Of a DNA stretch of 64,000 nucleotides, positions 2,280-57,131 are shown one piece after another. The first letter of the stretch is position 1; each line of letters opens with the position of its first letter. The notes beneath the pieces are model-generated. The model saw nothing but the letters and a program-made list of their open reading frames with translations, was not told where the DNA came from and ran no database searches. The translations under genes and the position numbers were made by a program. The DNA comes from Escherichia phage FL12. The stretch is from sequence record PP400786; one strand, 5' to 3'.

Positions 2280-3218
2280 TTATTTAAATTGTTCAGTAAC
2301 GTCTTCAACTACTTCGTATTGGCAGGTACGCATTTTAGCATCGTTGTAATCAATTGGAATTGATACTACATCACGAGGATGCACTTTAACTTTTACAACT
2401 CGGCTAGTTGAACTGCCAAAGTGACGAATATAAGATTTAGAACACACATGCAGACCACGAGAACAAGTTTGTGTATCATCGTCATTCACACGAGTGCGTG
2501 GCATTTTAACTACTTTACCAGGACTGTTATCAAAGGTATTTGAGTGACAGTCAAAGTAATTGCTGCGAACTACTTTCCAAGCATAGAAGTAGCCGTCTTC
2601 TGTAATTTCAATATCGTTTGCTACCAAGAAATCAAAGAGTCGAGATACCGCTTTTTGGCTCGGGTTTTCCAACAGATTTTCCAAGAACGGAAAATAAAAT
2701 TCAAAGTTTTCGCCTTTTTCCATCGAATCGAGAATACGATCAACTAAACCAGACCGCAATTCAATATTTTGATAGAACAGGCTTCCACCTTCAATTCGAA
2801 CATCACCGGAAATATATTTTTCAACAGCGCGACGAACGTTAATTTTTTGCGCAGCTTCTTCTAATTTATCTGCAACAAGCAGATTAAGAATTTCCTGGAA
2901 GTTTGAATGAGTATTAGGAGTTGCGTTATAAGTTACACCATCAACAGTAATTGAAATGAATTTTTTAGATGCATTCCAAATAATGTCAGATTTAGCAACT
3001 GGAGCAATAGCTACATCACTCTTAACTTCAACTGTAATGTCACCGCTAATGGTAACTTTGGAGCGTTCAGCTTCTTCAGCATTTTTCAAAACACGACGGA
3101 TTGTGTCAACAGATACACCTTGCCAATCAGCCAATTCCTGTTGGGTGTAATTACCACTTGAATACAGTTTGACAATTTCAGCTTGTTCGTTTTTGGTCAG
3201 GCATTTAATATTGTACAT
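2280..3218 (-). CDS. rIIB: rIIB protein
   Basis: 312 aa, same length as T4 rIIB; N-terminus MYNIKCLTKNEQAEIVKLY...; directly downstream of rIIA. Confidence 0.8.
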   Translation of the reverse strand: MYNIKCLTKNEQAEIVKLYSSGNYTQQELADWQGVSVDTIRRVLKNAEEAERSKVTISGDITVEVKSDVAIAPVAKSDIIWNASKKFISITVDGVTYNATPNTHSNFQEILNLLVADKLEEAAQKINVRRAVEKYISGDVRIEGGSLFYQNIELRSGLVDRILDSMEKGENFEFYFPFLENLLENPSQKAVSRLFDFLVANDIEITEDGYFYAWKVVRSNYFDCHSNTFDNSPGKVVKMPRTRVNDDDTQTCSRGLHVCSKSYIRHFGSSTSRVVKVKVHPRDVVSIPIDYNDAKMRTCQYEVVEDVTEQFK

Positions 3219-5677: not shown

Positions 5678-5777
5678 ACTGGCTCATCCATTCTTTACGA
5701 AGGTCAGGATTAAATGGGACTGCACGAGATGGGATAAACATAACTTTCATAATTAAGCCTTATTAAAATTAAAACGA

Positions 5778-5793
5778 AGCTCCCGAAGGAGCT
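5778..5793 (-). terminator. UUCG-tetraloop hairpin plus U-tract after HNH gene
   Basis: Minus strand AGCUCC-UUCG-GGAGCU followed by UCGUUUUAAUUUU. Confidence 0.6.
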
Positions 5794-6605
5794 TAGGACA
5801 TCCAACACATTTTATAACCTTTGCAGGTTCTGTTAGGATTATTTAATGCTTTCAATATATTAGAAGACCCTATATCTAAATACTCCCTTAATTCATAAAG
5901 ATAGTTAAAATCAACAGTTTCACCTGTTTTTACACTTGTGATTCTTATAGGCCTTCTTTCATATTTAGATTTATACAACTCTCTAGTCTTAGCTTTAGTT
6001 TCTTCTGACCTAGGAGTGTATGGTTTAAATCCTTTTGTTTTAAATGTTTCCATTCTTGATTTAGTTATTTTATCCTGGTGTTCTTTTGTTTTTACAGGTG
6101 CTTTTCGCCCATTCTCCCAAGATAACTTGTTGGCCTGTATTATTTTATCTATTGCTTCTTGCGTATGAGTTTTACCATAAAATGGATTTAATTCGCCTAT
6201 ACGTTGTGAAGCAATATGTGACATTAATTCTCTTGTTGCTTTAGTATGTTTTTTACCTTTAAATGGGTTGCCATTTTTAGCAATCCATTCTTTCATAAAT
6301 CTAGAGTGCTCTTTAGAGAATTCTTGTTTAAGCCAATCATAATCTCTAGAATTTCTAGCTCCCATGTAAAAAGCTCTAATAGCCATAAGCATAGAACGGT
6401 TCTTATGAATTTTATAAAGCAATAAATGGGCGATAAAATGCTCTCTAGGGGTCATTTTAACTAGATTTGATTTAGCATTACTCCCGCCCATAGATTTAGG
6501 CAAAATATGGTGAGTTTCAGTATAATTAGGAATAGTGCTGCGGTTTTTAGCCGCAGCGATAAGTTTATCATAAATTTTACGATAATTCATTATCGTAGCA
6601 TCCAA
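5793..6605 (-). CDS. HNH homing endonuclease (Mob-type) with NUMOD-like repeats
   Basis: 270 aa; HNH motif ETHHILPKSMGGSN...REH; repeated NPF(Y/K)GK(T/K)HT motifs; sits between rIIA.1 and gp39 as mobA does in T4; 5' end overlaps gp39 3' end. Confidence 0.75.
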   Translation of the reverse strand: MDATIMNYRKIYDKLIAAAKNRSTIPNYTETHHILPKSMGGSNAKSNLVKMTPREHFIAHLLLYKIHKNRSMLMAIRAFYMGARNSRDYDWLKQEFSKEHSRFMKEWIAKNGNPFKGKKHTKATRELMSHIASQRIGELNPFYGKTHTQEAIDKIIQANKLSWENGRKAPVKTKEHQDKITKSRMETFKTKGFKPYTPRSEETKAKTRELYKSKYERRPIRITSVKTGETVDFNYLYELREYLDIGSSNILKALNNPNRTCKGYKMCWMS

Positions 6606-8410
6606 TCTTTACGGAGTTCAGGGTCGTTACCCATGAGCATTTCAAATAGTTCTTTCCAATTTTCAGGAAGTTTAACTACGTCGTACACAGGGTTTTGAAT
6701 CATTTCTTTATATTCATCCCGCTGAAGTGAGCCCAATCCCTTGATGTATCGAATACTATGCTTAGGCAGTGTATCTTTAGCTTCTTCATACTCAGCTACA
6801 GTATAAAACCATTTTTGAGTTTTGCCAATTTGTGCAATAATTACAGGCGTTTTAACAAAGCGAATACGTCCTTGTTCAAACAATTCAGGCCAATTACTAA
6901 AGAAAGCAAGCAAAGCCGGATAAATACTTCCAAGTCCGTCATGATCGGCATCGGTCATAATAGCAATATTATGATAATTCAAGTTTTCAGCTTTTTCACC
7001 GAGAACTAATCCAGTGATTGCGCAAATATCAAATAGTTCTTTGTTTTTAAGCATATCTGCATAAGACATACCCCAACTGTTGAGAACTTTACCACGCAAT
7101 GGATAACCACCGTGAAGTTCTTTATCACGAACATCAATAAGATATCCGATAGCAGAATCACCCTCAGTCAAGAAAAGAGTAGTGTCAGCATCTTTACCAC
7201 AAAGATTCGCTTTGATATGTTTATGAACCTTAGCTTTAGAAGCCTTTTTAGCTGCCTTTGTTTCTGCTGCTTTTTCTGCCGCCAATTTACGAGCTAGTGC
7301 AGCTTCAATAATCGGCATTAAAATTGCTTCATTATTCAAAATAGCACGTGAAATCTTTTTAGCATCAAGTTGAATATGACTACGGATTTCACCAAATGGA
7401 GAAGTCAAACGCTCTTTAGTTTGAGAATCAAATCGCATGTTTTTCATATCACGAACAAACATAACGATAGTCAAACATTCTTTGACACGCGCTTTAGTTA
7501 CATCAATTTTGAACTTGCGTTTGATTTGTGGAATAAGGTCTTCACAAATATCATCCATAACACAGTCAATGTGATGGCCACCATTCTTAGTATGAATGTT
7601 ATTCACATAAGTTAATTGACGAAAACCATCCGGTGAACGACCAACCGCAATAGAACAGTTTTCTTGTTCTTGAACGATAGCATGCTCATCATACTGCCGT
7701 GCATATTTCTTAAAATTGCCCTGAACCTTTTTACCATTAAAGGTAAATTGAATATCAGGATAAACAACAGCAAGTGTCTGGAGACGATCCAGTGTAATGT
7801 CAAGATAAACCTGAGACAGCTCATTAGTTTCAAATGACATAAAATCAGGAATGAAAGTAACGCGAGTTCCTTTCCATTTTCCAGGAATATCTTCCCATGA
7901 TTTATTTTCCATGCCGTTTGAACAACGAACTACAATATTATTTTGACCATCGCCAGTTTCACCAACAAACATCACAGAAAAAATGTTTGTCAAACTAGAA
8001 CCAACACCATTCATACCACCGGTGACACGTTCTTTATCATCACCAAAGTTACCACCTGCTTTTGGAATAGTCCATGCAGCAACAGGACCAGGAATTTCTT
8101 CACCGGTAGGTGTTTTAACCATCGCTTGTGGAATACCACGACCGTTATCTTCAACTGTTACTTGATTGTTTTTAATAGTAACATTAATTTTATTTGCGAA
8201 TTTAAACTTAGTACGAATACCTTCATCTACTGAGTTATCGATAATTTCATCAATAAGCTTAACAAGACCAGGTACATACTGAACACTTTCCCATTTACCA
8301 AACAGAAAGCGCTCATGCATTTCATTAGCTGAAGAGCCAATGTACATGCCGCTACGCTTTTTGATATGTTCAATATCGCTCAGAATTTTAATTTCATTCT
8401 TAATCATCAC
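6590..8410 (-). CDS. 39: DNA topoisomerase II large subunit gp39 (GyrB-like ATPase; apparently fused 39+60 form)
   Basis: 606 aa; N-terminus MIKNEIKILSDIEHIKKRSGMYIGS typical of gp39/GyrB; Toprim-like region; single uninterrupted ORF. Confidence 0.85.
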   Translation of the reverse strand: MMIKNEIKILSDIEHIKKRSGMYIGSSANEMHERFLFGKWESVQYVPGLVKLIDEIIDNSVDEGIRTKFKFANKINVTIKNNQVTVEDNGRGIPQAMVKTPTGEEIPGPVAAWTIPKAGGNFGDDKERVTGGMNGVGSSLTNIFSVMFVGETGDGQNNIVVRCSNGMENKSWEDIPGKWKGTRVTFIPDFMSFETNELSQVYLDITLDRLQTLAVVYPDIQFTFNGKKVQGNFKKYARQYDEHAIVQEQENCSIAVGRSPDGFRQLTYVNNIHTKNGGHHIDCVMDDICEDLIPQIKRKFKIDVTKARVKECLTIVMFVRDMKNMRFDSQTKERLTSPFGEIRSHIQLDAKKISRAILNNEAILMPIIEAALARKLAAEKAAETKAAKKASKAKVHKHIKANLCGKDADTTLFLTEGDSAIGYLIDVRDKELHGGYPLRGKVLNSWGMSYADMLKNKELFDICAITGLVLGEKAENLNYHNIAIMTDADHDGLGSIYPALLAFFSNWPELFEQGRIRFVKTPVIIAQIGKTQKWFYTVAEYEEAKDTLPKHSIRYIKGLGSLQRDEYKEMIQNPVYDVVKLPENWKELFEMLMGNDPELRKDWMLR

Positions 8411-8477: not shown

Positions 8478-8746
8478 TATTTAAAACGAATAGTCGAATC
8501 CTTGAAGAATAGTCCAGAACATACTGTTCCTTCTACTTTCTGCCCGGTAGGTCCAATAGCACGAAATCCAGTATGCTGGAAATCATTTTCAGAGCAACCG
8601 AACCAATTATATCCAGTGATTTCAATATTAGTAAAACCACTTGAAGACAAAACTTTGGTTGCATTATCAGCATCAGTACATCCTATTAAAGACACTGCTA
8701 ATACTAATGCTGCAATAGAACGATTAATATATTTCATAATTTTCAC
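8477..8746 (-). CDS. putative lipoprotein
   Basis: 89 aa; signal peptide with lipobox LIGC. Confidence 0.5.
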   Translation of the reverse strand: MKIMKYINRSIAALVLAVSLIGCTDADNATKVLSSSGFTNIEITGYNWFGCSENDFQHTGFRAIGPTGQKVEGTVCSGLFFKDSTIRFK

Positions 8747-18021: not shown

Positions 18022-18489
18022 CTAAAACAATAGTAGGAGCATCGTCAAATTCATGAATTTTAGCAATTTTGGATTTAAATTATTCCATACATAATAAATA
18101 AAGTATGATAAAGCATCTTCACTCGCAATTATAAATTTATTTCCTTTATCTATTTTCCAACTATATAATGAATCGTACGAATAGAAAGATAAAGGTTTAT
18201 CATTATATTGTTCTGCGCTAACATTAATGTATTCGGATTTAGTAAATGCTTCAATTGCTCTAAACGGAATATTTGGTACAGTTTCAATAATACCAATCTT
18301 TTTAAGTTTTATTTCAGCATCTTCTGGAACTGGCATTGAAACGAAATTTTCTACGAGATACATAGGGTTACAATAACCCTTATCAATCACTACGGCTACA
18401 GTAATTGGAACATCTTTAGCAAACGACATGCTATTACTGCTAATATACATTTCAAACAAAATCGCTTCCATAATTTTCCTCAATCGCAA
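18022..18489 (-). CDS. hypothetical protein
   Basis: 155 aa ORF (true start may be a downstream ATG). Confidence 0.45.
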
Positions 18490-19398: not shown

Positions 19399-19608
19399 TT
19401 AAATTACATGATTATTTATAATAAATTCTCGCGGAACGTTAAAATATCCGATTTTAGTTAATATAACAACATCACCGTTAATAATTACCGGAGAATAATC
19501 TTCTGGAGCATTAAATTTCCAATGGGCTCTAATATTATATCCATCAGAACCAAATGCTCGAGTAGCCGGTCTCCCGGCTTTTTGCCACGCGTAGAAATCA
19601 AATTTCAT
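19399..19608 (-). CDS. hypothetical small protein
   Basis: 69 aa ORF. Confidence 0.45.
   Translation of the reverse strand: MKFDFYAWQKAGRPATRAFGSDGYNIRAHWKFNAPEDYSPVIINGDVVILTKIGYFNVPREFIINNHVI
19414..19421 (-). promoter_or_regulatory. late promoter TATAAATA upstream of soc
   Basis: Plus-strand TATTTATA about 35 nt upstream of soc start; soc is a capsid (late) gene. Confidence 0.5.
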
Positions 19609-19805
19609 TTTGAATGCTCTATAATTAATTTTAAGGCTTCTTCGCTGACAAAAATTTCGTCAGGACCTTCTTCTATAACCCAATCAACCATACGAAGTTG
19701 ATTAGTTAAGAGCTCACATACGAGCTCCTTGTTATAATCTTTAAATAGCTGGTTAATACGTTTCTTATGGGCTTTCTTAAGCTGACGCTTATTTAAACGA
19801 GCCAT
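19605..19805 (-). CDS. hypothetical small basic protein
   Basis: 66 aa ORF. Confidence 0.45.
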   Translation of the reverse strand: MARLNKRQLKKAHKKRINQLFKDYNKELVCELLTNQLRMVDWVIEEGPDEIFVSEEALKLIIEHSK

Positions 19806-20323
19806 TAATAACCTCGGTCTTGACGAGCGAAGTTTTCAGCATTTTTCAGGTAATAAAGTTTAAAGATTTCTTCAGCTGACATTCCAAGAGCAATAAATTT
19901 ATTCATGAAAAAGTGAAATTGGTCAATCAGTTCAAATTTAATTTCAAGCTGATCTTCGGGAGATAAATCTTGAATTTTCTTGGATTGCATTTCAGAATAA
20001 CGTTTCTTCCAAGGTTTCCATACAGCAGAAGCTTCTTTTTCACCATTACTCATACCACCAAGAGAAGTATATAGTTCGCGAGTTTCATCTGCGATATAAT
20101 CGTCTTGGTTTCGCAACCAAGCAAGAACTTCTCCTGCGGTTTCAAGTGAATCAGGATGACGATTTGTTTCTGGTTTATCATTAGCCAAACGAATCTGTAA
20201 ATGCCGCTGCATATCAAGCATAACCTGCAGTGGGTCAATATTGTGCATAATATTCTCAGCATATGCACGATTTGCTTTATCAACACCTTCGATCAAATGA
20301 GCACATTCATTAAAGTAAGCCAT
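19805..20323 (-). CDS. 56: dCTP pyrophosphatase gp56 (MazG-like)
   Basis: About 172 aa from internal ATG (MAYFNECAHL...); all-alpha NTP-PPase-like; ORF-track N-terminal extension reads into the intergenic promoter. Confidence 0.65.
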   Translation of the reverse strand: MAYFNECAHLIEGVDKANRAYAENIMHNIDPLQVMLDMQRHLQIRLANDKPETNRHPDSLETAGEVLAWLRNQDDYIADETRELYTSLGGMSNGEKEASAVWKPWKKRYSEMQSKKIQDLSPEDQLEIKFELIDQFHFFMNKFIALGMSAEEIFKLYYLKNAENFARQDRGY

Positions 20324-20394
20324 TATTTTTCCTTTCAATTCATGGGTTAGTAGATTAATTATACAATAAATATATAAAGCAATAAGGAGGACAT

Positions 20395-20595
20395 ATGGTA
20401 CAAAAATTAATGGCACTTGTTAATGCCATAAAAGGTAATAAAAAACGTATAGCTTTTACTATTTCTGCTATGGTAGGAATTTTACTCTGGAACTTTATTC
20501 TATCACCTGTTGCAATTGCGCATGGTATTAATATTCCAGTAGTTACTCTTGATACATTTGTAGATTTAGCATTTGCTTTAGTTGGGTTGATTTAA
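20395..20595 (+). CDS. small membrane protein (only convincing plus-strand gene in window)
   Basis: 66 aa with two hydrophobic helices; perfect SD AAGGAGG 5 nt before ATG at 20395; stop overlaps gp61 stop convergently. Confidence 0.6.
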   Translation: MVQKLMALVNAIKGNKKRIAFTISAMVGILLWNFILSPVAIAHGINIPVVTLDTFVDLAFALVGLI

Positions 20596-21620
20596 ATCTT
20601 AGCATATTTAGATAGCCGCATTTTAGCCATCAACCCCTGGGCAATATTATTTTTCATATATTCCATAATTTGTTCAGGGGTTGCACCTTCCTTTCTAATC
20701 ATATCATTGACATCTTTTGATTTCCAGGGAGATTTATCCCAAAACATAACCCTTTCTCCTGCATCAACTAATTTAGTCATTCGTTTGATAGTGTCAGGGT
20801 GACGAGGTTCATTATCTAAAACCCACACTCGTCTATCTTTAAATGGAACAACTTCTAGGTCTAATTGACCACCTGTAATAGCTATACCATTTTCAATAAA
20901 AAGTGAATCTATAGGTCCTTCTAGAACATATACATCACCATCTTTAACTCGTTCAACTCCATAGATTTTTGTTGCCTCAGGATAAGCTTTGATGGTGATA
21001 TATTTTTGAGGAGCATCTTTCTTTAATGCACGTCCTTGAAAAGACTCAGCTTTTCCATTAGCATTATAAATTGGAATAACAAGACGAGGCTCAGATATTT
21101 CCTTTTTATATGTTCCCGGTGCTATACTATTAACTAATTTAGGCCATTCGGTTGTAAACCAAAGATATTTCCATTTATCCTTTGGAATACAACGAGCTTT
21201 TACGTATTTTATAATTGGGTGGTCTTCCGCCAGTTTATCTAATCTAACACATGACGGAAGAGATTTAATTATTTTCTTCTCAGGTTGTTTAGGAAGTTCT
21301 TTAGGTTTTTCTACTGGACGACTTTTACCTTTTTCTTTTCTTATTTCAAAGATATACTCACGATATAAATCAGGTTCAAACTCCTTTAAATATATTCCGA
21401 TTGGTGCATGATAGTTACAGTTATAACAATGAATATTTCCTTCATTATTATCACCATAATACCATCCACGAGCTTTATTCTGGTCGGTTTTTGAATCTCC
21501 ACAAACAGGGCATCTAAACCGCAATTTAAAAGTTGAACTATTATTTACTTGTGTGAATTTAGGTAAATGAGCTAATGCACGGTATGCAAACTCATTATCA
21601 ATCCAAGGTATTGATGACAT
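20592..21620 (-). CDS. 61: DNA primase gp61
   Basis: 342 aa as T4 gp61; N-terminal zinc ribbon CPVCGDS...CYNC; Toprim region. Confidence 0.85.
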   Translation of the reverse strand: MSSIPWIDNEFAYRALAHLPKFTQVNNSSTFKLRFRCPVCGDSKTDQNKARGWYYGDNNEGNIHCYNCNYHAPIGIYLKEFEPDLYREYIFEIRKEKGKSRPVEKPKELPKQPEKKIIKSLPSCVRLDKLAEDHPIIKYVKARCIPKDKWKYLWFTTEWPKLVNSIAPGTYKKEISEPRLVIPIYNANGKAESFQGRALKKDAPQKYITIKAYPEATKIYGVERVKDGDVYVLEGPIDSLFIENGIAITGGQLDLEVVPFKDRRVWVLDNEPRHPDTIKRMTKLVDAGERVMFWDKSPWKSKDVNDMIRKEGATPEQIMEYMKNNIAQGLMAKMRLSKYAKI

Positions 21621-21622
21621 TT

Positions 21623-21787
21623 TTACTCTTCTTTTTCTTTAGATTCCTCTTTTTTCTTTTTAGGAATCTGCTCAGGACCTTTATTTACTACAGCGCCTGA
21701 CGTTGTTCCAGTAGAGATATTTTCAGGATTACCACCTGAATCTCCAGCGACCATATCTTCTTTGATAAATTCTTTATATGTTTTCAT
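21623..21787 (-). CDS. hypothetical small acidic/lysine-rich protein (about 54 aa; hand-called)
   Basis: MKTYKEFIKEDMVAGDSGGNPEN...KKKKEESKEKEE; below ORF-track cutoff. Confidence 0.4.
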   Translation of the reverse strand: MKTYKEFIKEDMVAGDSGGNPENISTGTTSGAVVNKGPEQIPKKKKEESKEKEE

Positions 21788-21788
21788 A

Positions 21789-22130
21789 TTAACCTCTATT
21801 CATAAAAGCATTAAAAATTTGGTCATCAATAGATGGCGCAGTAATATTTTCTGCATCATTTAGCAAATCATTAATTTCATCAGATAGCATAACACATGTA
21901 CCTTTATTTCCTGTAATTGTTACTGCACAATTACGAACGTTTTCTTTATCAAATTTTAGGTTAATATTTTCGTAGTGAAAATCCTTTAATGCCGAATATA
22001 TCTTTAAAATGAAATTGTCTTTTACTACAATAAACCCAACCTCACTATTAAAACGTGGTTCATGGAAACTGTAATAAACCTTTTCATCTATAAAATCGTA
22101 TGAAATTTTTCCATTTTTAAATATGAAAAT
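21789..22130 (-). pseudogene. truncated paralog (C-terminal half) of the adjacent 210-aa gene; no start codon
   Basis: About 114 open codons ending ...SIDDQIFNAFMNRG, nearly identical to the C-terminus of 22146-22778 (...SIDDQIFNAFMNRD); about 45 nt of near-identical DNA at both 3' ends; no in-frame ATG/GTG. Confidence 0.5.
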
Positions 22131-22145
22131 TCAGAACTATACATA

Positions 22146-22778
22146 TTAATCTCTATTCATAAAAGCATTAAAAATTTGATCGTCAATAGAAACTTTTACT
22201 TTAGGCTGTTCTTCAAACGGTAATTCATATCCACATATTACAATTTTGTGATCGATACCAAAATACACAGAAGCAATATTATTAATATTATTTTCAGTGA
22301 AATCTAAATCAACATCAATATCTTTTTGACTAACGCTCAAAGGATAATTAATACGAATAATTCGATTATCTTTAACAAAGATTCCACCGACATACTCTGT
22401 GCTGCGTTTAAAGTTTACACGTTTCCTAAATGAAAAATATTCAGGTTCTTTATGGGCTCGACTCATAGGGCTTAAAGTGTATTCCGAATATGAAATATCA
22501 AATCCTACACCTTCAATATGAGCCAAAGTGTCATGATTAAACCAATTATAATCGTATGCCAAATCCATTAAATTGTAATATGTGAAAGGCACCGGATTAA
22601 CATCATATGTTGTACCTTTAAAATCTGCCCAGGCAACGATTTCGTTATCTTTAACAATTACAAAAATTGTGCCAATAAGATATCCACGGTTATTTTCATC
22701 AGGCGTTATATTATAACATTGTGCATCAGGAAATTTACCGTATTTAAACGGTGGATTTTTGTGCATATAATAAATCAT
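22146..22778 (-). CDS. hypothetical protein (parent copy of the duplication)
   Basis: 210 aa ORF. Confidence 0.55.
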   Translation of the reverse strand: MIYYMHKNPPFKYGKFPDAQCYNITPDENNRGYLIGTIFVIVKDNEIVAWADFKGTTYDVNPVPFTYYNLMDLAYDYNWFNHDTLAHIEGVGFDISYSEYTLSPMSRAHKEPEYFSFRKRVNFKRSTEYVGGIFVKDNRIIRINYPLSVSQKDIDVDLDFTENNINNIASVYFGIDHKIVICGYELPFEEQPKVKVSIDDQIFNAFMNRD

Positions 22779-22779
22779 A

Positions 22780-23073
22780 TTATTCGCCTGTGATTTCGGT
22801 TACGATATTTTTATTATTGAAGTTTTTATCACAATACAGAACGTAATTATACTGCATTACCCCACCAGACTTAAGCTGTTTTTGTACTTCAGCTTTCATT
22901 TCAGGACGATCACGCTCAACGATATTCATAATATCTGCTTCAATTTGAGTTTCAACCTCAGTCTGATCCGCAGTCATAGACCATTCGCACAAATCTTTAT
23001 CATAGCCTGCCATAGCAGGCTGAGCAGCACAAGAAGATAAAGCAAAAATTGTAGCAAAGATAAATTTTTTCAT
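22780..23073 (-). CDS. sp: Spackle-like periplasmic protein
   Basis: 97 aa with cleavable signal peptide (MKKFIFATIFALSSCAAQPAMA); T4 Sp is 97 aa between 61 and 41. Confidence 0.5.
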   Translation of the reverse strand: MKKFIFATIFALSSCAAQPAMAGYDKDLCEWSMTADQTEVETQIEADIMNIVERDRPEMKAEVQKQLKSGGVMQYNYVLYCDKNFNNKNIVTEITGE

Positions 23074-23131: not shown

Positions 23132-23389
23132 TTATTTTAAAACTTCTGCATAATCACATGTTACAAACTGTTTCTCTAACTTGACGATTTTACGAAAGTA
23201 TCTTTTGCATTGGCGAATCTGCCGCTTCGTAGGGCGAACAGCAAACTTAATAAATTCCACTCGACCAAATGGAGGGTTTTCTTCTGCTGGAATATCTAAC
23301 ACCAATTCCCACGTATCCGCAATAAGTGCTTTGAATTGAGTATTTTTCCTAACGTTATACGGAGTAGGTTTAAATAAAACAATATGCAT
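23132..23389 (-). CDS. hypothetical protein (start trimmed to ATG with GAGGA RBS)
   Basis: About 85 aa from MHIVLFKPTPY... Confidence 0.45.
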   Translation of the reverse strand: MHIVLFKPTPYNVRKNTQFKALIADTWELVLDIPAEENPPFGRVEFIKFAVRPTKRQIRQCKRYFRKIVKLEKQFVTCDYAEVLK

Positions 23390-23390
23390 A

Positions 23391-23573
23391 TTATCCTCGG
23401 CAATCCACTTCACATACTTTCTTGTCATCAATAAAAGCTTCAACTAATGCTTTATTAACTTCAGCATACTGAGTAGTAGCCCATTGAACGTCATCTTTCA
23501 TCATTGTGGTTTCTTTAGTAAACATGCTTTCATTCTTAAACCACCCCATAAAAACTACCTTTACCAATTCCAT
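23391..23573 (-). CDS. hypothetical small protein
   Basis: 60 aa; GAGGAG RBS. Confidence 0.45.
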   Translation of the reverse strand: MELVKVVFMGWFKNESMFTKETTMMKDDVQWATTQYAEVNKALVEAFIDDKKVCEVDCRG

Positions 23574-23631: not shown

Positions 23632-25059
23632 CTAAAATTTTAATTCATTCGCCAAAGCATCTAACTGAGCTCGAGCTGATTCGTTTCTTTGATAGCGATT
23701 CTGTTCAGCCTGAATCTGTTGTGAACCTGCTACTTCGTTCACTTCAGTTGGAGTAGAATCTTGTTCAATTTCTACCCATTTCTGATTTCCCTTTTGAACA
23801 CCCATCAAAAACTTATTCCATTTGTTCTTATCGCCATATCGTGATTTGATTTGCTTAATGAGTTGTTGTTCAGCAGCTGCTAGCTCCTCGGTTTCAATGA
23901 CTGCAAGCATAAAATCAGCTGTTGCTGGAAGACCGGCAGATTCTGCAATATCGCTCATGTTAACATCGGAAGAGTCCCAAGCTTGTTTACCAACCTGTGC
24001 TGCAGTCCAAAGAACAGTTTCGGTTTCAACAGCCAGAGCACGCAATTCCTCGGCAATAGCTTTAACAGTTGTGTAACTATTTTCTGAATAAACTCTAATG
24101 CGGCAAGATTTACAAATACCTAGATAGTCGACAATAATGATTGTTGGAACAAAATTCTTCTTGAGCTTCAATTCGTTTAAAAGTGATCGAAATGTATTAG
24201 CATCTGCTCCACCAGTAGGATATTGTTTAACGATTAAACGACCGAGAGTAGATTTCTCACGCCATTTTTCCATTTTTCCTTTATACTCAGCGTAAGAAAT
24301 ATGCCCATCATCAATGTCATCAAGAGAAACATCAAGCATATTAGCGTCAATACGTTTAGCACAGACTTCTTCTGCCATTTCCATGGAGATATAAAGAACG
24401 TTATGACCAAGCTGTAAATAATCTGCTGCCAATGAACACAATCCTAATGATTTACCAACGTTAACGCCAGCCATTAAAACGTTCAGTGTTCCAGTCTCAG
24501 CTCCGCCTTTAGTAATTTTGTTTAGAATTCTGAGTTTAAATGGAACCTTACGAGCTTTATTCATATAAGATAGCCAGCGTGCTTCGTAGTCATCCATCCA
24601 ATCATGACCAACGTAGCTATCAAATGAAATTGATAATGCTTGACGCATGATGTCAGGAATAGCACCAACATCCGGCATTTTCTTATTTCGTTTTTCCGGA
24701 GGAAGCTCAGCATTAGTTTGAATTTCGATTATTTTAGACGTAGCATTAAACATCGCCCTTTGCTGAACATATTTTTCTGTTTCTTTTACTAACCAGCTGT
24801 GGTCTTCTGGAGAATCGGCTAGTTTTGAAATAAGTGTTTTTACACCAGAATATTCCGTTTCAGTAAATGAACTATTTTCTAATGCAACATTTAACGCATT
24901 AATAGATGGAACGCTATGATACTCATTGACATGAGATTTAATTAATTTGAATGTATTTTTAGCTGGACCACTTTCAAAATATTCTGAATCCATATATGGC
25001 CAAACTTTTGAAAAATAAGCTTGATCAAATATGAGATGAGAAAGAATAATTTCTACCAC
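23632..25059 (-). CDS. 41: replicative DNA helicase gp41 (DnaB-like)
   Basis: 475 aa as T4 gp41; Walker A GVNVGKS; RecA-like core. Confidence 0.85.
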   Translation of the reverse strand: MVEIILSHLIFDQAYFSKVWPYMDSEYFESGPAKNTFKLIKSHVNEYHSVPSINALNVALENSSFTETEYSGVKTLISKLADSPEDHSWLVKETEKYVQQRAMFNATSKIIEIQTNAELPPEKRNKKMPDVGAIPDIMRQALSISFDSYVGHDWMDDYEARWLSYMNKARKVPFKLRILNKITKGGAETGTLNVLMAGVNVGKSLGLCSLAADYLQLGHNVLYISMEMAEEVCAKRIDANMLDVSLDDIDDGHISYAEYKGKMEKWREKSTLGRLIVKQYPTGGADANTFRSLLNELKLKKNFVPTIIIVDYLGICKSCRIRVYSENSYTTVKAIAEELRALAVETETVLWTAAQVGKQAWDSSDVNMSDIAESAGLPATADFMLAVIETEELAAAEQQLIKQIKSRYGDKNKWNKFLMGVQKGNQKWVEIEQDSTPTEVNEVAGSQQIQAEQNRYQRNESARAQLDALANELKF

Positions 25060-40913: not shown

Positions 40914-41089
40914 TATCCACATAATACGCCATACAGAGGCTCATTAGAGCTTCTAAATTTTATGCGCTTATATGTTATAGTTTCTTCTGCTTTAGCTTTA
41001 TCATGAGACTCTTTAAAGCGTCTCATCATTTCCTCTTTAGAGGAACGATTTTTATTATAATCTATTTCAGAAGTCTGGATGTTCATCTT

Positions 41090-42346: not shown

Positions 42347-42422
42347 CTCTTAGCTCAATTCATAGATCTATTATATCATAATATTTGAAGATCTATCTTA
42401 AAGCATAGAGGATGAATCAATT

Positions 42423-42638
42423 TCAAGAATTCATCAGCTTAGCCGCTCCAAGAGCTGCATCTAGTGAATCAAATTGGTCAACATATTCAATCAATTCGCC
42501 GTAATTAGCATATAACCACCATTGGCTAAATTCATACTCAAGGATGAATCCATTTCCTTCAATTTGAGTTAAACCACTGCCATTTGTATTTACTTCATAT
42601 CCGGCAAGACGCAAATCGTTAATAAGAGCTTCGTTCAT
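42423..42638 (-). CDS. hypothetical small protein
   Basis: 71 aa. Confidence 0.45.
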   Translation of the reverse strand: MNEALINDLRLAGYEVNTNGSGLTQIEGNGFILEYEFSQWWLYANYGELIEYVDQFDSLDAALGAAKLMNS

Positions 42639-42967: not shown

Positions 42968-43005
42968 ACATTATCCTCAATTACGTTAAAATTTTATTAT
43001 CCAAA

Positions 43006-43021
43006 AAGGGCCGAAGCCCTT
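43006..43021 (-). terminator. UUCG-tetraloop hairpin
   Basis: Minus strand AAGGGC-UUCG-GCCCUU followed by U-rich. Confidence 0.5.
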
Positions 43022-43023
43022 AG

Positions 43024-43221
43024 CTAAACTTTTTGGGCACCCTTCCAGCCTTCATACATCATTGCGGCTGATATTAATATTGCTCCTGAGCAACTCGAAT
43101 ATTTGTGATTCCAAAACCAGTTTAGAAAAACTTCATCATCAATACCTTGGGCTATCATATTTTCAAAGAACTGACGACGAGATTCGGCAATTCGCTGTGA
43201 TAATTTAGATTCAGGATTCAT
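43024..43221 (-). CDS. hypothetical small protein
   Basis: 65 aa. Confidence 0.4.
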   Translation of the reverse strand: MNPESKLSQRIAESRRQFFENMIAQGIDDEVFLNWFWNHKYSSCSGAILISAAMMYEGWKGAQKV

Positions 43222-48026: not shown

Positions 48027-48236
48027 TTAACCCCGAAGCTTATTAAGTTCTTCATAATCAATCCAGGATTCTAGTCCTGATGGCAAATCAGATTCAATTT
48101 CCCAAAGAAGCTCTTCAATTTTCTGAAGACGATCTAGTTCTTCGGCTGGAATAGTAACCATTGACGGAGTTCTTGATACACTAATATCGTAAATCATATT
48201 TATCCCAGTTTGACCATACAATCGCCGTATTTCCAC
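48027..48236 (-). CDS. hypothetical small protein
   Basis: 69 aa. Confidence 0.4.
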   Translation of the reverse strand: MEIRRLYGQTGINMIYDISVSRTPSMVTIPAEELDRLQKIEELLWEIESDLPSGLESWIDYEELNKLRG

Positions 48237-48415
48237 TTAGAAATAGACTTTTCACCATTAGAATAATAAACTTCAAGTTTAGCACGATTATTTTTAATTT
48301 GAATAACCTTTGCTGTCATCAAAGTTCCATACCCATAATAAACTGCAACTTCATCACCTACATATACCGCGCTTCCGCGGTAATCGTGAATATAGTCAGT
48401 TCCTTCGAGCATCAT
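48200..48415 (-). CDS. hypothetical small protein
   Basis: 71 aa. Confidence 0.4.
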   Translation of the reverse strand: MMLEGTDYIHDYRGSAVYVGDEVAVYYGYGTLMTAKVIQIKNNRAKLEVYYSNGEKSISKWKYGDCMVKLG

Positions 48416-48919: not shown

Positions 48920-49220
48920 TTTCTTCTCGGTCAAATCGGTGTTTACAATGGCGGCATTTATAACGAAGATTACTAGTCTGCCAATGGACCAATTGCACCT
49001 GTTCAGTTCCACATTCAGGGCAATTAGGAACGTTTTTAGAAGCACGTTCGCGGCGTTCAACCATGACCATTACAGAATCCCAATTAACAGGAGGGCTATA
49101 ATCATCACAACCATGAATCTTTCCACGCATTTCTAGATCGTCTTCTTCACCAGCCATAATAATTTTAATTAAACTGGAATTACTTGAAGCTGCAATGTCT
49201 TCTAATAGACGCTTTTTCAT
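48906..49220 (-). CDS. zinc-ribbon protein
   Basis: 104 aa; CPEC...CRHC. Confidence 0.5.
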
Positions 49221-49262
49221 TTCAATACCTCAATAGCATTACGTAAACCATTTGCTTTTGCA

Positions 49263-49895
49263 TTAAGAGCTTTTAACAATTTGGTGTGTTCTGCAATTTG
49301 GGGCTTCAACTTCAATCAAACGAGCATTGAGATATTCGCGTTCTTCTTTCATAGTATCATTCCCATGATTGGGTTTTGGTGCAGATTTAAATTCACTAGG
49401 GTCCTTTAATTTAATAACAAATTTAGTTTCAAACAGTGAAAGACCATAATTCGTATTATCATCAAAGGATTTGACTACATCCATATCAGATAATAACACG
49501 CGCAAATTATAAGCCAAAGAACTAATAGTTTCATTGTGTTTATTAGCTTCGCGTGGTTTCATATACGGAAGATTTTTATATATCTCGTGCGGAGCACAAA
49601 TGATAATTGACAATTCAAATTGTCCATTCTGGGACGATGGAGTGAATTTAGCCGTAACCCAGTCTTTTACATTCACATTAATAGTACGGTTATCACCATG
49701 ACAAAACAGTCTACGAGAATGCTTAAAAAGCATATTCACGTTATTATTGAATTCGTGTGAAAATTCACTAGCAAATTTTTCTTTACTACATTTAGAAAGC
49801 CATTCTTCTGAATAAGTTCTTTTCACGTCGTTAATAATATTAAATGTAACAACACTAGCATTTGATACATTAGTCTCAATGTAGCTTGGATACAT
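49263..49895 (-). CDS. hypothetical protein
   Basis: 210 aa ORF. Confidence 0.5.
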   Translation of the reverse strand: MYPSYIETNVSNASVVTFNIINDVKRTYSEEWLSKCSKEKFASEFSHEFNNNVNMLFKHSRRLFCHGDNRTINVNVKDWVTAKFTPSSQNGQFELSIIICAPHEIYKNLPYMKPREANKHNETISSLAYNLRVLLSDMDVVKSFDDNTNYGLSLFETKFVIKLKDPSEFKSAPKPNHGNDTMKEEREYLNARLIEVEAPNCRTHQIVKSS

Positions 49896-50140
49896 AAATT
49901 TTTAACATTATTAACAGCTATTATAGAAGATAGTAATCGGGAACGTTTGAACCACTCGAGCAAAGAACCAAGAGAATGTGAATACGCATTTTGTGTATCT
50001 TTACAAATATGGTTTTCCCATCCAATATAGTCTAAAAAATCACGAAGAATATTATTGATTACTGCTCTGTGTCCTATCTGATAATTACGGTGTTTAGTAA
50101 TAAGACTGTCAAAATAATCAATATAATGTTTACGAGTCAT
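49823..50140 (-). CDS. hypothetical protein (start trimmed to ATG after GAGGAG RBS)
   Basis: ORF-track start at 50191 lies inside the early promoter; about 105 aa; 3' end overlaps next ORF by about 73 nt. Confidence 0.4.
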   Translation of the reverse strand: MTRKHYIDYFDSLITKHRNYQIGHRAVINNILRDFLDYIGWENHICKDTQNAYSHSLGSLLEWFKRSRLLSSIIAVNNVKNLCIQATLRLMYQMLVLLHLILLTT

Positions 50141-56368: not shown

Positions 56369-57131
56369 TATTAGACCTTTCATAATCTTCATTAAATTGT
56401 ACAATCAATCGATGATAATTAGATTTTGGATATCCTAATTTACTTATATAAGTTCCGAATGACCCACGTTTAGGTCTATTTAATTTAATCCATAACTTAT
56501 AAAGTAAGTCATAGTCTTGCCAATGTTTACCAGTTCTTTGTCTAATTTTAGATGAATTTGATTGTTTCTTTTTAGTTTCAAAATTATTCAAAGATTTTTT
56601 GACTGCAGCAGAGTGTTTTTCTTTAACTCCCGGTCGTTTAAAAGCAGCTTTCACCCCTTTAGATATTTTTTCTTTAACTTCCGGTTTGTTTTGTGCTTCT
56701 AACTGGGATTCTGAAATTTTAGCCCTTATTTCAGGAAGACTTAATGTTATCGAACGTTTTTCTCTGTATTCATTAGACTTCCACATTTCTTTCATTGTAT
56801 TAGAATGTATTTTTGAAAATTTTTCTCTAACTAACTGATATCCTCTTGAAGTTAATTTGAGATTTCTTCCTAAAGAATCTTCTCCAAAATTATAAAATGA
56901 CCACCATGCATAAATTAATCCAGGCGAATTATAATGAATTTTAGCTAAAAGCCAATGGGCTATAAAATGCTCTCTAGCTGTTAATAAAACTAGATTATCA
57001 GAATCATCATTACCACCAATACAAGATGGAATAATATGATGCTTTTCCGTATAAAAATTTAATTTAGATTTATCTAATTTTCTGAGTTTTCCTTTCTTAA
57101 TTAAATTATTATATACTTTAGTATAATTCAT
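56352..57131 (-). CDS. HNH homing endonuclease (Mob-type, mobD position)
   Basis: 259 aa; HNH motif EKHHIIPSCIGGNDDSDNLVLLTAREH; paralog of 5793-6605. Confidence 0.75.
   Translation of the reverse strand: MNYTKVYNNLIKKGKLRKLDKSKLNFYTEKHHIIPSCIGGNDDSDNLVLLTAREHFIAHWLLAKIHYNSPGLIYAWWSFYNFGEDSLGRNLKLTSRGYQLVREKFSKIHSNTMKEMWKSNEYREKRSITLSLPEIRAKISESQLEAQNKPEVKEKISKGVKAAFKRPGVKEKHSAAVKKSLNNFETKKKQSNSSKIRQRTGKHWQDYDLLYKLWIKLNRPKRGSFGTYISKLGYPKSNYHRLIVQFNEDYERSNNENCS

Follow-up and report, generated by a model that had tools for sequence, protein, structure and literature searches.

In T4-like phages, the genes dmd, tifA and adfA lie in an anti-toxin-antitoxin island and act against RnlA, ToxN and DarT, respectively (PMC9391042; PMC11825919). 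The product of adfA is anti-DarT factor A (AdfA). It is gp61.2 of T4 and RB69, is located in this island (PMC9391042; PMC11257639; PMC11825919), and goes back to LeRoux et al. 2022, as that work is cited in PMC11825919 and PMC9391042. With histidine at residue 164 (RB69 numbering), AdfA binds DarT1 and neutralises it. The inactive AdfA of RB69 has arginine at this position (PMC11825919). Phage T2 is treated in the literature as naturally without an adfA homologue (PMC11825919). Another anti-DarT gene of RB69, 30.3 (adfN), is naturally frameshifted by a T insertion, and this lesion experimentally abolishes DarTG1 resistance (PMC11257639). We analysed the adfA locus of Escherichia phage FL12 in a stretch of 64,000 nucleotides (nt) of record PP400786, hereafter the window. 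On its minus strand, an adfA gene of 210 amino acids (aa) is followed by an open frame of 113 codons without a start codon. Alignment to orthologues indicates that this start-less frame is a frameshifted allele of a conserved AdfA-family gene, which we call the short gene.

An earlier note on this DNA had read the same place as a tandem partial duplication of the 210-aa gene, leaving a start-less and truncated copy downstream. The features of the locus are the following.

22146..22778, minus strand: adfA (T4 gene 61.2), anti-DarT factor A, 210 aa; Pfam PF23813, phrog_3781, 73% identical to T4 gp61.2.
21789..22144, minus strand: frameshifted allele, by alignment to orthologues, of the conserved 118-aa single-module AdfA paralogue (phrog_4122; RB32ORF033c; HY01_0032).
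22088..22144, minus strand: 5' fragment of the short gene by translation, with ATG at 22142-22144 and 17 further codons, MYSSEFSYLKMEKFHTIL, then TAG.
22106..22110, minus strand: A5 tract, read as T5 on the plus strand, where alignment places the 1-nt deletion; A6 in relatives.
21789..22130, minus strand: 3' open frame of the broken gene, 113 codons and stop, identical in sequence to residues 14-118 of intact orthologues.
22142..22190, minus strand: repeat copy 1, with the last 14 adfA codons (SIDDQIFNAFMNRD), the stop and the short-gene ATG.
21785..21833, minus strand: repeat copy 2, with the last 14 short-gene codons (SIDDQIFNAFMNRG), the stop and the ATG of gene 61.1.

The 3' open frame runs from 22130 to 21792 on the minus strand, with 113 sense codons and a stop at 21789-21791. 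As the earlier note had stated, it contains no ATG, GTG or TTG up to an internal methionine, which opens an open reading frame (ORF) of only 33 aa (21789-21890). It also abuts the 54-aa ORF named there, at 21623-21787. The same stretch is annotated in phages Lutter, NR1, 303Ecol101PP and JK1 as an intact coding sequence (CDS) of 357 nt and 118 aa; in the window it measures 356 nt. Aligned to Lutter, NR1 and 303Ecol101PP, the window presents one gap in an A run and two or three substitutions. The missing base lies in ATGGAAAAAATTTC, with A6 in the relatives and A5 in the window, and the tract corresponds to nucleotides 35-40 of the 357-nt gene.

In TAATATG, the adfA stop and the ATG of the short gene overlap. 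In the A5 allele, a ribosome that starts at this ATG reads 18 codons up to a stop, and 113 codons are left in the -1 frame. Adding one A to the window restores a 118-aa protein, 99-100% identical to the orthologues. The four intact orthologues share start and stop, and a single indel explains the loss of frame. So, the short copy has no start in the window because one base has been deleted, which turns A6 into A5 at 35-40 nt downstream of the ATG. The earlier note had taken a non-canonical start for this copy as evidence against its reading. A start was found; however, it is the canonical ATG at 22142-22144, disconnected by the frameshift.

The restored 118-aa protein matches phrog_4122 (E=2e-72). 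It also passes the Pfam AdfA threshold (31.9 bits, cutoff 27; E=1.1e-7), with a match confined to profile positions 113-211. An NCBIfam profile search gave no match. The start-less frame, put by the earlier note at roughly 114 codons, has 113 and is homologous to the C-terminal half of the 210-aa protein. BLASTP finds 37% identity over 105 aa (E=2e-10), and hhalign aligns the short protein to the C-terminal module of AdfA with a probability of 97.8% (E=1e-12). Residues 1-110 of AdfA have no counterpart in the short gene, which thus does not present the full-length AdfA architecture. Because the N-terminal half is without counterpart, we class the short gene as a single-module paralogue rather than an orthologue of AdfA. 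AlphaFold2 models the 118-aa protein confidently as a compact fold of its own, in which five strands are followed by a helix, then a strand and finally two helices (predicted local distance difference test, pLDDT, 80; predicted template modelling score, pTM, 0.70).

By tblastn, the short gene is present in 293 phage records at 90% protein identity or more; more distant homologues (43-48% identity) occur in other genera, among them Gaprivervirus (46%). Searched exhaustively with a profile, 1.84 billion representatives yielded only 10 clusters, four of them single-module (118-125 aa) and one full-length AdfA. T2 (MH751506.1) and RB14 show the order sp, short gene, 61.1, with no full-length adfA; the short gene lies at 1501-1857 of both loci. 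T4 carries adfA only, and the group of the window carries both genes. The tandem pair of adfA and short gene is found in 116 phage records (at least 80% of a 1.6-kilobase (kb) query), plus the ENA contigs L024 and L025. Judged by these comparisons, the short gene is a separate conserved gene that corresponds to the C-terminal module of AdfA. The earlier note had also considered that the repeat could be an assembly artefact. A tandem duplication made by assembly is ruled out, the pair being present in more than 100 independently sequenced phages and in metagenome contigs.

Compared with AdfA of T4 and RB69, the 210-aa gene of the window is an orthologue. The short gene shares with it the C-terminal module, the tail, the slot between sp and 61.1 and the translational coupling; in contrast, it is without the N-terminal module of about 100 aa and has an N-terminus of 20 residues of its own. 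The restored protein is 99-100% identical to RB32ORF033c, RB14ORF34, HY01_0032 and the "gp61.2" of T2, with the same start, stop and neighbours. These differ from the window allele in having A6 and an intact CDS, which is annotated only as a hypothetical protein.

The near-exact repeat that the earlier note put at about 45 nt, some 360 nt apart, is real. It is a direct repeat of 49 nt (21785-21833 versus 22142-22190) with 46 of 49 positions identical and a start-to-start spacing of 357 nt. Its exact 28-nt core, CAAATTTTTAATGCTTTTATGAATAGAG, occurs twice in 64 kb, against 0 expected from 100 dinucleotide-preserving shuffles. If the 3' half of adfA had recently been duplicated in tandem, as a partial copy never provided with a start codon, this would account for the tandem position, for 3' ends that share 46 of 49 nt and for homology confined to the C-terminal half. 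Nevertheless, this origin is hardly credible. Outside the tail, the codon alignment gives 24 identical residues in 81 (30%) and 44% nucleotide identity, and the same codon is used at 7 of the 24 identical residues, compared with 12.0 expected. Orthologues with a canonical ATG and an intact CDS are present in hundreds of genomes, T2 and RB14 carry the short gene without the long one, and one base restores the frame. The single-base lesion, the 293 orthologue records, the T2/RB14 architecture and the diverged bodies together refute it.

Since the bodies share only 24 of 81 amino acids and 44% of nucleotides, with fewer same codons than expected, the duplication, or the domain fusion that created adfA, is ancient. 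What stands of the earlier reading is a pair of tandem paralogues, the second with no usable start in the window. A truncated remnant of a partial duplication it is not, given the intact 118-aa CDS in relatives, a family of its own and an ancient divergence.

The conserved part of the two paralogues is limited to the tail SIDDQIFNAFMNRG, the Shine-Dalgarno sequence and the stop/start junction, and that tail is the repeat. In the last 13 codons, 13 of 13 amino acids and 37 of 39 nucleotides are identical, and the same codon is used at 11 of 13, compared with 7.45 ± 1.67 expected. By sequence, the final codons AGA GGT TAA T ATG make up a GAGG ribosome-binding site and a stop/start overlap for the following gene. 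In copy 2, AGAGGT provides the GAGG Shine-Dalgarno 7 nt ahead of the next ATG. The tail peptide S-[IV]-DDQIFNAFM-[NK]-R-[GD] is common to AdfA, the short family and a 145-aa family of Gaprivervirus. RB69 and EAWsc9 keep it with synonymous codon changes. The constraint on the tail is mainly at the protein level, because RB69 and Gaprivervirus keep the peptide with synonymous codons. Next to 61.1, the tail has the same nucleotides whether it ends adfA (T4) or the short gene (T2, Lutter, window), and for the window and T4 this includes the 61.1 junction. T2 and RB14 retain 14 nt, TAGAGGTTAATATG, ahead of the short gene.

T4 rearranges the same island via short homologies (PMC9391042). T4 without the short gene and T2 without adfA present the pattern expected from recombination between the repeats, a step that we infer from their sequences. 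By recombination at the 49-nt repeat, cassettes would be gained or lost.

No sigma-70 promoter or terminator was found in the repeat, and the literature gave nothing specific on a promoter there. In the Lutter record, each repeat copy carries a "promoter" annotation. To the eye, AATGCTTTT-N12-TAATAT is similar to a MotA-dependent middle promoter. We gave this likeness no weight: RB69 breaks the TGCTT core and yet keeps the peptide.

Tail-sharing proteins also occur in Gaprivervirus. Its 145-aa proteins (phrog_8539; EAWsc9 XLZ23881.1, VR25 A0A0A7HCC1) are like the short protein in the slot after sp, the core motif VG.I.VKD..I and the tail SVDDQIFNAFMKRD. They differ in a longer insert before the tail and in weak overall similarity (E about 3e-3 to phrog_8539). 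In EAWsc9 (locus L008, 1062-1869), the 145-aa protein, misnamed "serine/threonine protein kinase", is followed by a 122-aa homologue of the short gene. Both slot proteins end in DDQIFNAFMKR; thus, tandem tail-sharing cassettes are present in another genus.

The A5 allele is probably genuine, a null allele that recurs by slippage. One A would have been lost from the A6 run of the short gene, cutting off the ATG from the remaining 113 codons. The loss may have arisen by replication slippage at a mutational hotspot, giving a null allele. This allele would recur in wild T-even phages since, on some hosts, they can do without the gene or are burdened by it. At rII of T4, frameshift hotspots at A-runs were measured in the laboratory (Streisinger slippage model). 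The likeness lies in a T-even A6 run that loses a single base independently on several haplotypes; the difference is that recurrence in the short gene is deduced from assemblies. A precedent is adfN of RB69: like it, the short gene would be a T-even counter-defence gene inactivated in nature by a single-base indel. However, adfN is a NADAR glycohydrolase of another family and locus with a shown phenotype, whereas the window lesion is known from sequence.

The recurrence is seen in independent assemblies. The exact A5 26-mer is present in the ENA metagenome contig UMED01024097.1, and 22 contigs (Logan, ENA, NCBI) have the 33-aa remnant as a called ORF. The identical A5 deletion is found in eight of the ten remnant contigs shown, plus L013; carriers include L013, L014 and L018-L023. 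With the window, they make at least six genotypes, 1.3-4% apart over kilobases. A5 stands on at least four gene haplotypes and in three architectures (no adfA, 208-aa adfA and 210-aa adfA). Three of the A5 haplotypes have isolate counterparts identical over 101-121 nt except for one extra A. The genes for gp41, primase, sp, dmd, 61.4 and 61.1 have their usual length in every A5 contig. Among intact 118-aa variants, the commonest (P0031) is on 159 contigs, compared with 22 for the exact 33-aa remnant. Disrupted copies are roughly a minority of one in ten at most.

Other independent lesions of the short gene were observed. L016 (OZ035785.1, GCA_964034365.1; about 2749-3102) and L017 have several indels, an independent decay. 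L015 is without the first 140 nt or so of the gene, again an independent lesion. In phage ESh36 (L009, 1501-1845), a 3' frameshift replaces the conserved tail, and the record is flagged UNVERIFIED.

If one homopolymer base had been under-called in sequencing or assembly, the phage would have A6 and an intact 118-aa gene. We consider this unlikely, though it is the most serious competitor of a genuine allele. It would agree with A6 in every closest isolate genome, with a downstream frame free of secondary decay, and with the UNVERIFIED flag of ESh36, another record lesioned in the short gene. Against it, the same A5 is present in at least five other genotypes, from independent SRA and ENA assemblies, with all neighbours intact. 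Illumina MiSeq produces few homopolymer indel errors. FL12 belongs to the FL phages, which were sequenced on Illumina MiSeq 2x250 (PMC12032242). The 33-aa remnant and the AdfA of the window are exact matches to adjacent proteins of Escherichia phage FL12, XAO16722.1 and XAO16723.1. In the window, all essential genes compared with T4 are intact in one frame (gp43, 41, 61, 44, 45, 46, 47, 62, uvsX, dda, rIIA, 42 and 55). The window has four frameshifting homopolymer indels, and all are in accessory genes: the short adfA paralogue, mrh and nrdC.3 (two).

Some results weigh against a genuine allele. First, the other three of these indels are private, absent from other assemblies, and break conserved genes, a pattern expected of a homopolymer-error-prone assembly. 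Second, A5 is in 0 of the 294 curated isolate records holding the stretch, with three haplotype queries; their best isolate matches were at 99.0-99.2%, always with one extra base. Likewise, no A5 copy was found in IMG/VR, in GTDB genome contigs or in complete E. coli genomes. Finally, every A5 allele keeps the downstream frame fully open. This fits an error or continued selection, and also very recent events.

The private indels themselves are as follows. In mrh (ORF 18022-18471, minus strand), the T run at about 18058 has lost one base (T5 to T4, plus strand), which puts some 25 codons at the end of the gene out of frame. The surrounding 121 nt match 39 phage records at 99.2%; each of these has one base more, and no record matches at 100%. 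The nrdC.3 homologue (49220-50140) is in three frame segments, with T6 to T5 at about 49899 and G3 to G4 at about 49300. Neither the frameshifted mrh product nor the 210-aa middle ORF of nrdC.3 was on record elsewhere in our look-ups.

The open downstream frame also bears on whether the broken gene is still expressed, by recoding through a -1 slip or by a reversible ON/OFF switch at the A tract maintained by selection. The frame of 113 codons is open in all six A5 genotypes, with conservative changes only. A -1 slip of tRNA-Lys on GAA_AAA_T would give the exact wild-type protein (MEK-ISYDF), and 10 nt upstream stands an in-frame canonical X_XXY_YYZ heptamer, T_TTA_AAA. The tract also resembles a contingency locus: the homopolymer lies early in the ORF, A5 and A6 occur on at least three shared haplotypes, and ON and OFF alleles are found together on at least three to four haplotypes.

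Such recoding or switching is, even so, very improbable as an explanation of the state in the window. About 294 relatives are simply in frame and no frameshift is conserved. No stimulatory structure turned up, although none was specifically sought. The heptamer T_TTA_AAA would harm the in-frame majority allele, and L016 and L017 show plain multi-lesion decay of the short gene. As for a switch, A6 is shorter than typical contingency tracts, and A5 or A6 is short for transcriptional slippage. A programmed -1 frameshift as a conserved feature was rejected: the relatives are in one frame, and their heptamer is within an in-frame gene. Because nearly all relatives are simply in frame, the site is not a conserved recoding signal.

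A broader proposal gives the switch a function. The paralogue would be a counter-defence protein against a DarT variant or another toxin and a liability on some hosts, the A6 tract a hypermutable, reversible ON/OFF switch, and the repeat a recombination handle. We hold this combination to be improbable. If the switch were true, it would explain A5 on many haplotypes and the undecayed downstream frame. Together with the recombination handle, it would turn the sp-61.1 slot into a small counter-defence module that can be reconfigured rapidly.

Leaving the switch aside, the A5 allele sits beside an intact adfA. The 210-aa protein matches Pfam PF23813 over positions 1-209 of 211 (459.3 bits, cutoff 27; E=1.7e-138). 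It presents the full-length AdfA architecture, about 208-212 aa with both profile halves. The proteins P0001-P0005 carry a precomputed PF23813 assignment, and the adfA-specific N-terminal half is present in 486 records. At the specificity site (RB69 R164/H164), T4 and most close AdfA relatives have histidine. The window has instead asparagine (N167, codon 22278-22280), which, by alignment, is a third allele of the specificity residue. This residue opens the helix of the C-terminal module, the module that the short protein retains. There, too, it is asparagine (N72). Thus, neither protein has the histidine of the DarT1-neutralising AdfA nor the arginine of the inactive AdfA of RB69.

The AlphaFold2 model of AdfA (pLDDT 73) presents a five-strand-plus-helix pattern twice, once per half. 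This like order of secondary structure is suggestive of an internal duplication but unproven. At sequence level the support is weak, and we did not adopt this reading: the N- and C-terminal halves share only an 11-residue motif, V.VKDNEI, with an hhalign probability of 12.6%. A perfect 15-nt inverted repeat is also found within adfA (22232-22246 / 22570-22584), with 323 nt between its arms. It is probably due to chance, since T4 and RB69 show uncompensated changes in the arms.

Like AdfA, the product of the short gene would act in counter-defence by binding a toxin. Its homology and position make some toxin variant the most likely target. T2 needs AdfN to resist DarTG1, and T4 resists DarTG2 (PMC11825919). 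T2 has the short gene, and its dependence on AdfN against DarTG1 counts against this function. Consequently, the short protein is neither sufficient against that DarT1, because T2, with the short gene only, needs AdfN, nor required against DarTG2, which T4 resists without it. T2, described as adfA-less, carries in the adfA slot a 118-aa gene of a family that passes the Pfam AdfA threshold.

The window belongs to a Tequatrovirus. In a nucleotide search, the region around the 22-kb mark of the window is 98-99% identical to many Tequatrovirus (T4-like) genomes, and the window overall 96-99%. The 25 kb around the locus are 96% identical to T4. The gene order is dmd, 61.4/tifA, sp, adfA, short gene, 61.1 and gene 61 (primase), and the sp-61.1 slot is likewise occupied in T4, T2, RB14, RB69 and EAWsc9. 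The minus-strand genes were named by tblastn against T4, as listed.

20592-21620, minus strand: primase gp61, tblastn against T4.
21623..21787, minus strand: gene 61.1, 54 aa, downstream neighbour, translationally coupled; 96% identical to T4 gp61.1, phrog_1823.
22780..23073, minus strand: sp (spackle), upstream neighbour, which bounds the variable slot sp-61.1; 94% identical to T4 Sp, annotated spackle in relatives.
About 23132-23389, minus strand: 61.4 / tifA, tblastn against T4.
23391-23573, minus strand: dmd, tblastn against T4.
23632-25059, minus strand: helicase gp41, tblastn against T4.

Elsewhere in the window, mosaic differences from T4 were found at 19400-20400, 5700-7000, 48050-48400 and about 6267-6590 / 56769-57131. 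The region around gene 56 has diverged from T4 (69% aa). The genes dam, 60.1, 49.2 and 49.3 of T4 had no match by tblastn against the window. For segF, mobB and mobC, only distant paralogues were found elsewhere in the window (26-46% identity), and HNH (mob-like) endonuclease matches occur at two other places. Small accessory ORFs show frame or start differences: 55.1 (42379-42638), a-gt.2 (40916-41074), 55.3 (43003-43221) and 39.1 (8480-8665). These lie outside homopolymers and were compared with T4 only; ordinary allelic variation may account for them.

The gene family and the type of lesion are both known, and the locus is no new kind of system. The small new points are the recurrent A5 allele and the short paralogue in "adfA-less" phages. 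For annotation, the start-less ORF is best entered as a frameshifted allele of a conserved AdfA-family gene and not as a 33-aa hypothetical protein, as it apparently is in GenBank (XAO16722.1). T-even phages taken as adfA-less, such as T2, carry a single-module AdfA-family gene, which is relevant to studies of DarTG counter-defence. Its repeated loss in the wild, mostly at one A6 run, would mark the short gene as dispensable or conditionally costly, as is typical of counter-defence genes. Finally, the tail and junction repeat suggests how cassettes of the island can be stacked (adfA and short gene), single (T4, T2) or exchanged.

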